Origin: an uncultured Planctomycetia bacterium
GTDB taxonomy: Bacteria > Omnitrophota > Gorgyraeia > Taenaricolales > CAZCCH01
DNA: 64,000 nt
Reading direction: 5' to 3'
Assembly: GCA_964497315.1 (NCBI GenBank)
Contig: CAZCCH010000001.1
Coordinates: 56,106-120,105 of the forward strand
The notes under the pieces are model-generated. The model had not been told where the DNA came from. It saw only the letters and a list, made by a program, of their open reading frames with translations, and ran no database searches. A program made the translations under genes and the position numbers. Within the stretch, counting starts at the first letter, position 1. Each line of letters begins with the position of its first letter. Positions 49,867 through 51,912 of this stretch are shown here, one piece after another.

Positions 49867-50130
49867 TTATGAAACGACAAAAATCAAAAGAAGTGCAATG
49901 ACAAGTGAATAAATACCTGTTGATTCAGCAATAGCATCGGCTATAAGCATAGTACGTGTTATCGGGCCTTGTAGTTCTGGTTGCCTGGCTATTGATTCAC
50001 ATGCCTTCCCGCCGACAAAACCTTCACCTACTCCTGGGCCAATAGCACCCAAGCCCATACATAACCCTGCGCCTAATAATGCCGCTGCCCTGATTATAAT
50101 AGTGCCATCGATTGGGACAACTGCTGCCAT
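49867..50130 (-). CDS. atpE: F0F1 ATP synthase subunit c, with Na+-type ion-binding signature (E in helix 1, ESTxxY in helix 2)
   Basis: 87 aa. [13 protein letters not shown] ... [22 protein letters not shown]. The ESTGIY motif and the helix-1 carboxylate resemble the Na+-binding c-rings of Ilyobacter and Fusobacterium. Confidence 0.85.
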
Positions 50131-50142
50131 GTTTTACCTCCT

Positions 50143-50868
50143 TTAGTCTCTTGCAACCGCAATATATGTTAGTGCCAACATACTGAAAACAAATGCCTGA
50201 ACCAAACCTACAAATAAACCAAAAAACCCTTGCAGGACTATCATGAGTCCCATCACCCCTGGTGCTAAAAACCACTTAGGGATAGATAGGATACCTGCAA
50301 TCTTAAATACAATGGGTACTGCCAAAGCAAGTATTATCCCACCGCCAAAGATATTTCCAAAAAGCCTAAAGGAATGGGATACCACTTTACCCACTTCACC
50401 AATTACATTAATTGGGAATAAAAAGAAAAATGGTTTAAAGTAATCCTTGATGTAATTAATTAAACCCTTATGCATCACTGCGGATATGTGCACTATAAAA
50501 AACACTAAAAGGCCAAATCCCAAGCAGGTATTTAAATCAGATGTAGGTGGATCTACATTAGGGATTGCACCAAGCCAATTAGAGATCAAAATAAACAAAA
50601 ACAACGTCATGACAAGCGGGAAGAATTTCTTCCAATCCTCGCCAAGTGCTTCTTTGCAGATATGGATAAAATATCCCACCAGCGTTTCAGTGGCAATCTG
50701 TATCCTGCTGGGGATAAGTTTTATCCTTGTCTTTATAAAAATAGAAAAAACAATAAGGGATATTATTATCCCCCAGGTAAAAATTAATGTAGTCGGATTT
50801 ATGGTTAGGGTAAAATCTAATCCTGGTATGTTAAAAGAAATTGTTTCTATCTGGCCTATATCATTCAT
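50143..50868 (-). CDS. atpB: F0F1 ATP synthase subunit a
   Basis: 241 aa polytopic protein with the conserved Arg region FRLFGNIFGG. Confidence 0.85.
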   Translation of the reverse strand: MNDIGQIETISFNIPGLDFTLTINPTTLIFTWGIIISLIVFSIFIKTRIKLIPSRIQIATETLVGYFIHICKEALGEDWKKFFPLVMTLFLFILISNWLGAIPNVDPPTSDLNTCLGFGLLVFFIVHISAVMHKGLINYIKDYFKPFFFLFPINVIGEVGKVVSHSFRLFGNIFGGGIILALAVPIVFKIAGILSIPKWFLAPGVMGLMIVLQGFFGLFVGLVQAFVFSMLALTYIAVARD

Positions 50869-50871
50869 AGT

Positions 50872-51117
50872 TTACTCTATGCCAAAAAGAAGTAAAACGG
50901 CTACTACCAAAGAATATATAGCAGTAGATTCTGTTATGGCCATAGCGATAAGCATGGTCTTCATTATTTGACCTGAAGCTTTAGGCCTATCGGTCATTGC
51001 CTCAGTACCTCTCATGCCACAAAGACCAATGCCCATTGCAGGGCCTATCGCACCAAATCCCATGCATAACCCTGCGCCTATAAAAGTAACCATTTTAAGT
51101 ACTTCTTGCGCATCCAT
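50872..51117 (-). CDS. Second ATP synthase c-subunit paralog, upstream of atpB
   Basis: 81 aa. GAGLCMGFGAIGPAMGIG ... IAMAITESTAIYSLVVAVLLLFG is a c-subunit hairpin with the ESTxxY motif. It is a distinct sequence from atpE at 49867. Confidence 0.75.
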   Translation of the reverse strand: MDAQEVLKMVTFIGAGLCMGFGAIGPAMGIGLCGMRGTEAMTDRPKASGQIMKTMLIAMAITESTAIYSLVVAVLLLFGIE

Positions 51118-51496
51118 CTATAAATAGAATTATCCTTATTGAAATAAAGCCACTTATAACACCTACAAACATAAGCTTATCTTTAGTAAATGAGGTAATC
51201 AAAGCAAGTGCTAGAACAAAATACAGAAGGAGGAATTTACTTGCTAGGTAAATTTTTATCCTTTTGACTTGACCGGAAGTAATTTTTCTTATGCTGGTGT
51301 ATGTATTTGCAAAGCTTGCGGTGGCTACTAGAAATCCGACTATATATCCAATGGAAAAATATCGCTTGCCTAAAACAAACGATACTACTGCAACTAGTAT
51401 TGTTAAGGTGAGGGATTTCCAAAGAATGTCTAGTCTGAATTTTTCAAATGTCTTTTCTTTCATCTTTGGCAATAATCTGCTTATATACCGAAACAA
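51095..51496 (-). CDS. atpI: AtpI-like ATP synthase accessory membrane protein
   Basis: 133 aa, 4 TM, in the position typical of atpI. Confidence 0.45.
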   Translation of the reverse strand: MFRYISRLLPKMKEKTFEKFRLDILWKSLTLTILVAVVSFVLGKRYFSIGYIVGFLVATASFANTYTSIRKITSGQVKRIKIYLASKFLLLYFVLALALITSFTKDKLMFVGVISGFISIRIILFIDGCARST

Positions 51497-51662
51497 ACCC
51501 TGCTGCTATACCTATTAATATAAACACAATAGAAAAGATACCTTTTGTGCCAAGCCAGGTATCTATATAGCGGCCTATCCATAGAGATAATAATATGCAT
51601 ATAATGATAGTAAGGCCGACTTGCGTGACTAAGCCAAAATAGTAGAAAATGCTATTTCTCAT
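51444..51662 (-). CDS. atpZ: AtpZ/AtpR-like small 2-TM protein
   Basis: 72 aa. The GRYIDTWLGTKGIF motif (GxxxDxxxxTxPxF-like) is typical of the AtpZ family found at the head of atp operons. Confidence 0.45.
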   Translation of the reverse strand: MRNSIFYYFGLVTQVGLTIIICILLSLWIGRYIDTWLGTKGIFSIVFILIGIAAGFVSVYKQIIAKDERKDI

Positions 51663-51666
51663 TATA

Positions 51667-51912
51667 TCACACTTTAACCAGCAAACTAACTGCTTTTTTG
51701 TTAACTTCTATAAACCCTTCTTTAATTTGGAGCTCTTTTTCTTCAGAAGGCGTGGTAATTTTAACTTTACCGGTTGCAAGTTTTGATAATAGTGGGGCGT
51801 GATTTGCCAATATAGTCATCTGCCCTTCTATGCCTGGTGCATTTACTGACGTAGCTAGGCCATGATATAGTTGGTTTTCTGGGGTGTTTATGGTAACTTC
51901 GAATTTTTTCAT
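51667..51912 (-). CDS. atpC: ATP synthase epsilon subunit, beta-sandwich domain only (C-terminal helical hairpin absent), encoded at the start of the operon
   Basis: 81 aa. LYHGLATSVNAPGIEGQMTILANHAPLLSKLATGKVKI ... EGFIEV aligns with the epsilon N-domain (E. coli ...[26 protein letters not shown]...GGILEV). Confidence 0.7.
   Translation of the reverse strand: MKKFEVTINTPENQLYHGLATSVNAPGIEGQMTILANHAPLLSKLATGKVKITTPSEEKELQIKEGFIEVNKKAVSLLVKV

Follow-up and report, generated by a model that had tools for sequence, protein, structure and literature searches.

Background

The closest described relatives of the gene cluster reported here are the Na+-coupled F1Fo enzymes in Acetobacterium woodii and in Clostridium aceticum with an F/V-hybrid c-ring (PDB 4bem; Matthies et al. 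2014; Brandt and Muller 2015), which combine atpI with more than one kind of c gene and an abundant one-hairpin c subunit. The A. woodii ring consists of nine one-hairpin c subunits and one two-hairpin V-type c1 subunit with a single Na+ site (PMC9171764), and the concept of a hybrid rotor has been extended to C. aceticum, which has c1 plus c2 (PMC7911925). A further article (PMC13343851) cites Brandt and Muller 2015 for multiple atpE copies being regular in anaerobic Rnf-dependent bacteria. Here we describe a comparable operon with two c genes in a stretch of 64,000 nucleotides (nt; the window) from an uncultured bacterium, probably of the phylum Omnitrophota (contig CAZCCH010000001.1). Its additional c gene, hereafter c', encodes a free single hairpin and precedes atpB, and a short epsilon gene heads the operon directly behind pyrE. 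On balance, we read c' as a scarce member of a mixed c-ring. Na+ F1Fo enzymes with heterogeneous c genes are a known theme; specific to this clade are the free c' in front of atpB and the position of epsilon.

The odd c subunit of A. woodii is presumably present in low copy and its extra hairpin need not bind an ion, which resembles c'. Nonetheless, in A. woodii the gene for the odd subunit follows atpB and specifies two fused hairpins, whereas c' is a free hairpin encoded before atpB in a gene that overlaps atpI. Furthermore, a covalent link joins the ion-blind hairpin to a functional hairpin in A. woodii, whereas c' of the window is free and still has its Glu, and the main c subunit has Q32 in A. 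woodii against E32 in the window (Ilyobacter tartaricus numbering is used throughout). A second point of reference is the c11 ring of Fusobacterium nucleatum (PDB 3zk1/3zk2; PMC3692424), in which E32, E65, S66, T67 and Y70 are the same as in the main c subunit of the window. The solved ring, however, has one sequence in every chain, against two c genes in the window operon. In the literature covered (Brandt and Muller 2015 falling outside it), we found no account of a free single-hairpin c paralog upstream of atpB or of a fused F-type c.

Results

An eleven-gene atp operon with two c genes

The minus strand of the window (G+C about 38%) holds all genes examined, except for one plus-strand pair of PmbA/TldD-family genes (34428-37207). 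From 51912 to 45061 it carries an unbroken series of eleven genes, listed below in the direction of transcription with protein lengths in amino acids (aa):

51667..51912, minus strand: atpC, epsilon subunit, 81 aa (PF02823 only, residues 4-80 of 81, E 1.4e-21)
51444..51662, minus strand: atpZ-like small membrane protein, 72 aa (PF09527 ATPase_gene1, 64.5 bits against a cut-off of 26.6)
51095..51463, minus strand: atpI-like membrane protein, 122 aa from the ATG at 51463 (PF03899, 25.6 against a cut-off of 25.1 bits)
50872..51117, minus strand: c', second c-type hairpin protein, 81 aa (PF00137, 61.9 bits)
50143..50868, minus strand: atpB, a subunit, 241 aa (PF00119, 161 bits; TIGR01131, 145 against a cut-off of 102.6)
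49867..50130, minus strand: atpE, main c subunit, 87 aa (PF00137; register against 3zk1 and 1yce)
49366..49848, minus strand: atpF, b subunit, 160 aa, the single b gene (PF00430; TIGR01144, 97.3 against a cut-off of 65.5)
48822..49376, minus strand: atpH, delta (OSCP) subunit, 184 aa (PF00213, 145 bits; TIGR01145, 99.9 against a cut-off of 57.5)
47306..48817, minus strand: atpA, alpha subunit, 503 aa (identified through Pfam matches of the identical gene in locus L001)
46446..47306, minus strand: atpG, gamma subunit, 286 aa (TIGR01146, 247 against a cut-off of 194)
45061..46449, minus strand: atpD, beta subunit, 462 aa, final gene of the cluster (TIGR01039, 793.7 against a cut-off of 462.85)

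All genes lie where the first-pass annotation had placed them, in the order epsilon-Z-I-c'-a-c-b-delta-alpha-gamma-beta and with no epsilon after beta, and the Pfam and NCBIfam matches agree with this order. The atpC gene starts 15 nt past the end of pyrE (in locus L098 the two overlap by 4 nt) and ends 4 nt ahead of atpZ, while the 3' end of atpI and the start of c' share 23 nt. The match of the AtpI-like protein is barely over the cut-off; its start was taken from the JGI gene calls in loci L002-L004 of the same organism, as the open reading frame (ORF) from the TTG at 51496 would yield 133 aa. Behind beta follow tRNA-Val, tRNA-Asp and an unrelated 1305-aa ORF. A scan of the operon for promoters and terminators gave no excess over shuffled controls.

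Several metagenomes contain further, independent contigs of the same organism with this eleven-gene order. Since it recurs there, in related metagenome organisms and in two GTDB genomes (L017 and L018), the layout is no assembly artefact.

The c' protein is a single hairpin with a dispensable carboxylate

The c' and c proteins are 48% identical and both belong to PF00137, so that one operon contains two distinct c genes. Like c, c' aligns to the solved c-rings, gap-free, and it has Ile, Glu, Ser, Thr and Tyr at positions 32, 65, 66, 67 and 70. Its helix 1 reads GPAMGIG (Ile32), its loop TDRP (D-R-P where c has R-Q-P) and its helix 2 ITESTAIYS, in which the Glu is kept. Consequently, the two-carboxylate Na+ site is present in the 87-aa c but not in c'. 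The best PDB matches are c1 and c2 of 4bem for c', and c1 of 4bem for c. Even so, c' is a single hairpin rather than a four-helix V-type c, and its Glu-less orthologues are likewise single hairpins.

A comparison of ten loci shows how freely these positions vary in the c' family. At position 65 the window, L098 and L009 retain Glu, whereas L011, L012, L015, L017 and L018 have Ser, L099 has Ala and L100 has Gly. Position 32 is occupied by I, T, V or A, and in no case by Q or E. The loop reads ADRP, SEAPK or GKKEET across the ten loci and RQP is lost in all of them, whereas the G/A-x-G-x-G packing motif of helix 1 is invariant. The canonical c, in contrast, keeps E32, E65, S/T66, T67, Y70 and the ARQPE loop in 10 out of 10 loci. 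Given that the carboxylate and the F1-contact loop vary among the ten c' proteins while c keeps them, both are dispensable for the role of c'. The Glu and the ESTxxY motif of the window c' are the minority state of the family. The earlier statement that both c subunits carry a Na+-type ESTxxY is therefore correct for the two window proteins, in which the ES(T) residues fall on the ion-site positions of the I. tartaricus and F. nucleatum rings, but it does not extend to the c' orthologues with Ser, Ala or Gly. With these substitutions and without Q or E at position 32, c' is not an ordinary second Na+-binding c subunit.

In a neighbour-joining (NJ) tree the c' proteins form a clade with 96% bootstrap, and the canonical c proteins of the same genomes form a separate one with 100%. 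The ratio of non-synonymous to synonymous substitutions (dN/dS) of c' is 0.06-0.18, which indicates purifying selection. Two simple explanations for the extra gene were rejected on these grounds. A recent tandem duplication of c disagrees with the separate clades, and c' is no nearer to its own c than to the c of other phyla. A pseudogene disagrees with the low dN/dS and with the retention of c' across lineages whose alpha subunits are down to 59% identical.

Relatives share the c' gene beyond the epsilon-first group

GTDB was scanned with a c' profile, using one genome per species. The two genomes with the same eleven-gene order are L018 (CP070655.1, a 1.14-Mb chromosome labelled Candidatus Omnitrophota, beta 78% identical to that of the window) and L017 (an automatically labelled bin, alpha 72% identical). 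Among metagenome assemblies, L098 and L009 (alpha 84% identical) have the full window order, and L099 has pyrE-epsilon-Z-I-c'-a-c...beta. Both the epsilon-first order and the c duplication, for which a comparison with related genomes had been proposed, are hence shared by L098, L009, L017, L018 and L099. By identity of a, alpha and beta, the next relatives are other Omnitrophota-labelled genomes, which makes an Omnitrophota origin of the window probable.

Other loci have c' in a different setting. L011, L012 and L015 carry Z-I-c'-a-c-b-delta-alpha(-gamma) with no epsilon in front, and in L011 there is no beta behind gamma. L100 (alpha 59% identical) and the P0059 contig have parA-parB-Z-I-c'-a-c-b-delta-alpha-gamma-beta-epsilon, with an epsilon of 86-92 aa. 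The Z-I-c'-a-c block reaches beyond the epsilon-first group, to lineages with epsilon last, and in about 12 lineages the c' gene is always found in this order. The tight core of the family amounts to about 10 clusters at 90% identity in a collection of 5.8 billion proteins, next to a handful of remoter single-hairpin relatives (P0055, P0059, P0094, P0132, P0147, P0239 and P0263).

Ribosome-binding sites differ between c and c'

The canonical c gene has a perfect AAGGAGG 6 nt 5' of its ATG. In the window the pairing energy of the Shine-Dalgarno sequence with the 16S rRNA tail is -12.9 kcal/mol for c and -5.1 kcal/mol for c'. The same tendency is observed among the relatives: c has by far the strongest site of the operon in 8 out of 8 lineages (-11.4 to -13.3 kcal/mol), against +1.9 to -7.8 kcal/mol for c', which is comparable to a, epsilon and gamma. 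In most lineages the c' start overlaps the final 17-28 nt of atpI. These predicted strengths are consistent with an enzyme that contains c in many copies and c' in few.

Fused c genes in other phyla

Fused c genes with 2-4 hairpins (170-330 aa) are found beside atpB in Planctomycetota, Desulfobacterota, Cloacimonadota, Hydrogenedentota, Lentisphaerae and other Omnitrophota, at the following loci:

L019-L028, L031-L033, L037, L044, L050, L053, L057, L058, L063, L068, L071, L072, L074, L084, L089, L095 and L097: fused c gene

At these loci a single canonical two-carboxylate c comes after the fused gene. Among the fused hairpins, several replace Glu65 by Q, S or G, show I, L or S at position 32 and have degenerate loops. 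In an exhaustive profile search 59 protein clusters scored below 1e-30, most of them made up of proteins that have two to five hairpins. The fused genes agree with the hybrid-rotor concept of A. woodii and probably correspond to the hybrid rotors covered by Brandt and Muller 2015. The fused genes thus resemble the c' family in being an extra c-type gene next to atpB, often with carboxylate-less hairpins. They differ in that they have 2-4 (up to 5) hairpins and lie after atpB in all genomes but one (in L089 the fused gene precedes atpB, like c'), whereas c' is one unfused hairpin before atpB.

Proteins with 5, 7, 8, 12 and 15 c-type hairpins were also obtained in the profile search. Four further loci (L060, L064, L073 and L078) have, directly upstream of a complete Na+-type operon with the order a-c-b-delta-alpha-gamma-beta-epsilon, another a-c-b module with an apparently H+-type c (AEAVAIY, Ile32). 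Their contigs are labelled Gammaproteobacteria, Bdellovibrionales or uncultured bacterium and resemble genomes of the candidate phyla radiation.

The main c subunit has a two-carboxylate ion site

Aligned to the rings of I. tartaricus (1yce) and F. nucleatum (3zk1), the 87-aa c protein has E32, E65, S66, T67 and Y70 in register; helix 1 (GPGVGEG) supplies Glu32 and the loop reads ARQPE. The five ion-site residues are identical to those of the two-carboxylate F. nucleatum ring, and this exact signature bears out the first-pass reading of the helix-1 Glu as part of a two-carboxylate Na+ pattern. The attribution of that pattern to the Ilyobacter ring as well was mistaken: position 32 of I. tartaricus (1yce) is Gln, which leaves a single carboxylate there, so that of this pair F. 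nucleatum is the only one with the two-carboxylate pattern. Judged from the motif, we infer that the operon encodes an F1Fo ATP synthase/ATPase built for Na+ coupling. The F. nucleatum operon has a single c gene and a full-length epsilon at its end.

Epsilon is short and has moved to the front

The epsilon protein matches positions 1-78 of the 80 positions of PF02823 and passes TIGR01216 (69.0 against a cut-off of 67.25). As had been proposed, it is without the C-terminal inhibitory helices: the two-helix domain PF00401 is missing and the chain ends at residue 81, with zero residues past the beta-sandwich. The same is seen in relatives, since no residues follow the sandwich in L009, L017 and L018 either and the L098 orthologue has 80 aa. 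Orthologues of 80-86 aa occupy the front position in L098, L009, L017, L018 and L099, with a dN/dS of 0.21 between L017 and L018. The truncated epsilon is not peculiar to this operon. Epsilons with only the beta-sandwich are present in the normal place in L022, L026, L053, L093 and L100, curated NCBIfam epsilon models with just 88-102 positions exist, and naturally short, beta-sandwich-only epsilon subunits of about 80-100 aa are known. An epsilon without C-terminal helices is unable to exert the helix-dependent inhibition of ATP hydrolysis.

The gene lies directly behind pyrE in the window, L098, L099, L017 and L018 (with two inserted genes in L009), and last in L022, L100 and the P0059 contig. 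Because c'-bearing relatives keep a short epsilon after beta, the epsilon-first order is a derived move of epsilon alone to a place behind pyrE. According to a survey of atp loci, the beta-epsilon block is usually conserved and moves as a unit; in Bacteroides/Chlorobi operons beta and epsilon lead as a block (PMC4154653), whereas here epsilon alone leads and beta stays last. The relocation splits a block that is otherwise usually conserved.

A near-identical promoter-like motif (cTTGACAtttttaatattaaatgttatttt, containing TTGACA) was observed right before the atpZ start in five related loci:

L011, 2090-2150: promoter-like motif cTTGACAtttttaatattaaatgttatttt
L012, 640-702: promoter-like motif cTTGACAtttttaatattaaatgttatttt
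L015, 1855-1914: promoter-like motif cTTGACAtttttaatattaaatgttatttt
L017, 9400-9437: promoter-like motif cTTGACAtttttaatattaaatgttatttt
L018, 9325-9364: promoter-like motif cTTGACAtttttaatattaaatgttatttt

In L017 and L018 the motif sits between epsilon and atpZ, and epsilon may therefore be outside the atp transcription unit there; it is absent in the window, where the two genes are 4 nt apart. As the -10-like element of the motif abuts the ATG, the atpZ mRNA may be leaderless.

Discussion

Taken together, we lean towards c' being a low-copy protomer of a mixed c-ring. In function it would correspond to the ion-blind hairpin within c1 of A. woodii, but it would be unfused and translationally coupled to atpI. 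It would be produced in roughly the same amounts as the single-copy subunits and built into the ring beside many copies of c, breaking the symmetry of the ring as c1 does in the 9:1 hybrid rotor of A. woodii. In most relatives the carboxylate-less c' would then cause one ion-blind step per turn and a lower Na+/ATP ratio. In the window, where the Glu is kept and the helix-1 ligand is missing, c' would provide at best a weakened one-carboxylate site. Without the epsilon C-terminal helices the enzyme would have no epsilon-hairpin brake on ATP hydrolysis, and it can probably run both ways, using Na+ to make ATP or ATP to pump Na+. The hetero-oligomeric c-ring suggested in the first-pass annotation is thus a reasonable reading, though not with c' as a second ordinary Na+-binding subunit, given that its family conserves neither the Glu nor a ligand at position 32. 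More tentatively, it might be argued that c' represents a new class, a free-standing single-hairpin 'keystone' protomer that is present in one or few copies, needs neither the carboxylate nor the RQP loop and is coupled to atpI.

Several observations weigh against this picture. The mixed ring is proven in A. woodii, whereas the physical presence of c' in a ring is deduced from genes. The c' protein has lost two hallmark functional motifs of c: most lineages lack the carboxylate and none keeps the RQP loop. These losses, and the place of c' next to the accessory genes atpZ and atpI and upstream of atpB, fit a role outside the rotor equally well. The AlphaFold2 model of c', based on a 10-sequence alignment, has a helix at 3-43, a loop and a helix at 49-77 but is of low confidence (pLDDT 65). 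In the NJ tree c' groups with hairpin 1 of the Omnitrophota fused genes L019, L022 and L023 at 27% bootstrap, and with hairpin 3 of planctomycete fused genes at 10%. Shine-Dalgarno strength is a mere proxy for stoichiometry. A Na+ motif is no guarantee of Na+ dependence, as the Sporomusa ovata ATPase illustrates (PMC9430772). Six-frame phmmer searches over the whole 64-kb window gave neither a second epsilon nor a second ATPase, but as they spanned 64 kb only, one elsewhere in the genome could not be excluded; a word-indexed search with epsilon yielded 3 proteins, too few to bear on a second epsilon.

The most serious competitor, which we nevertheless regard as rather unlikely, is that c' arose from c but serves outside the rotor, as an accessory or assembly protein, acting either as an AtpI-linked seed or template for the ring or as a hairpin static on subunit a. 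AtpI is a c-ring assembly factor in Propionigenium modestum and A. woodii, and such a role would agree with the place of c' beside Z and I, with the overlap of its start with the end of atpI, with its weak ribosome-binding site, and with a dispensable carboxylate and an RQP loop (the contact to gamma and epsilon) that is gone in every lineage. It agrees less well with the invariant small-residue packing motif of helix 1, which is typical of ring protomers, and the membrane-buried Glu of the window c' is hard to explain in a static hairpin. In related phyla, equally degenerate hairpins are covalently fused to functional ones and must therefore sit in rings, and we know of no c-derived assembly factor. 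A different possibility is that c and c' form alternative homo-oligomeric rings, as isoforms for differing conditions or ions. The window c' would in principle allow this, as its helix 2 retains Glu, Ser, Thr and Tyr and could bind an ion alone. We consider this very improbable, however, because most c' proteins are without the carboxylate: the orthologues with Ser, Ala or Gly, which are the majority, could not drive rotation as a homo-oligomer. Moreover, the two genes share a single compact operon that gives no hint of separate control, and a subunit needed in many copies would require a far stronger Shine-Dalgarno sequence than that of c'.

The type of the enzyme and its coupling ion can be weighed in the same manner. 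An enzyme that is H+-coupled in vivo despite its Na+-type motif has a parallel in the S. ovata ATPase, which has a Q...ET/S motif yet is not stimulated by Na+ (PMC9430772), and among the 30 other annotated ORFs of the window there is no Na+ pump gene (Rnf, Nqr or decarboxylase). We hold it to be improbable, as the five site residues are those of F. nucleatum, for which Na+ coupling has been demonstrated experimentally (PMC3692424), the ion site of c is kept across the 10 related loci, and the related contigs come from metagenome samples that are presumably marine, judged by sample identifiers alone. Membership of the N-ATPases, or direct descent from a common stock with them, is suggested by the order of these enzymes, beta-epsilon-Q-R-a-c-b-alpha-gamma (Dibrova et al. 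2010, PMC2881411): there, too, epsilon stands ahead of two small membrane proteins and a-c-b, an order that epsilon-Z-I-(c')-a-c-b imitates, and Na+-type c subunits are common in that family. In addition, PF09527 carries the name ATPase_gene1, and there is a sub-threshold match to AtpR in Pfam (E 0.035). Unlike N-ATPases, however, the window operon has delta, no true AtpR and beta last, with only epsilon leading. A full F-type subunit set is encoded (a, c, b, delta, alpha, gamma, beta and epsilon, plus AtpZ and AtpI), with both hallmarks of the type: the stator Arg of the a subunit, read from the translation in motif SHSFRLFGNIFGG (SHSFRLFGN), and the helix-2 carboxylate (E65) of c. The NCBIfam equivalog models are over their cut-offs for atpB, atpE, atpF, atpH, atpG, atpD and atpC, whereas the 'alt_F1F0' models TIGR03305, TIGR03306, TIGR03321, TIGR03322 and TIGR03323 are all under theirs (the N-type beta model TIGR03305 gives 604.6 on atpD against a cut-off of 752). 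Since delta is present (PF00213/TIGR01145), curated F-type models pass and N-type models fail, the enzyme is F-type, as had been concluded from delta and the terminal beta. We therefore rejected an N-type affiliation, which appears hardly credible. Nor is the resemblance to the N-ATPase layout ancestral, as had been implied: c'-bearing L100 and the P0059 contig, and also L022, keep epsilon after beta, and because the epsilon-first order is a later relocation the likeness is convergent.

Surroundings of the operon

Upstream, the operon abuts a series of pyrimidine genes on the same strand:

51928..59829, minus strand: pyrimidine-biosynthesis run (Pfam on identical genes in L001 and L002)
59710-59829, minus strand: PyrR-binding RNA element (Rfam RF00515, 59.2 bits against a threshold of 54)

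The order of the run is PyrR RNA element, pyrR, pyrB, pyrC, three other genes, pyrK, pyrD, pyrF and pyrE, and it also holds a Mut7-C protein and a protein with an MJ0043_C domain.

Downstream of the atp operon and its two tRNAs, the 1305-aa ORF (40671-44588, minus strand) has an N-terminal hydrophobic segment, a highly charged stretch rich in Lys, Arg and Glu, and an internal protein-L-isoaspartate methyltransferase (PCMT) domain, found by Pfam on the identical gene in L001. In a sister lineage (L009 16411-17340 and L010 11379-12308) atpD is followed, where the window has two tRNAs, by a gene with a weak match to the homing-endonuclease family LAGLIDADG_3; a Fic-domain protein comes next.

Further downstream, a match to the group II intron model RF00029 (58 bits) was obtained at 37277-37343 on the minus strand, with no reverse-transcriptase ORF nearby. 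About 320 nt from it lies a weak match of 100 nt to the tRNA model (32.5 bits, 37666-37765, minus strand), for which ARAGORN made no call. Together these could be an ORF-less intron or an intron remnant beside a degenerate or interrupted tRNA.

Conclusions

The number of ion-binding hairpins in the c-ring sets the ion-to-ATP ratio of a rotary ATPase. To our knowledge, natural loss of sites in rings has come about through fused c proteins of two or more hairpins, namely V-type c, the c1 subunit of A. woodii and variants in archaea. Should c' be part of the ring, an unfused and separately translated hairpin would reach the same result as fusion. The question would then be how copy number and ring position are controlled, for which the overlap with atpI suggests an answer coupled to assembly, and the two small genes, which lend themselves to expression in E. 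coli, would offer a simple test system for the assembly of mixed rings. If the 'keystone' reading is true, c' would provide a Na+ rotor that is otherwise homomeric with a unique docking mark and with a step that is ion-blind or weakened, and this would be the first c-ring that loses ion sites without gene fusion. Finally, a presumably marine candidate-phylum lineage joins the predicted users of a two-carboxylate Na+ rotor combined with a brake-less epsilon. This bears on whether the enzyme serves these bacteria, with their small genomes, for ATP synthesis or for pumping Na+.

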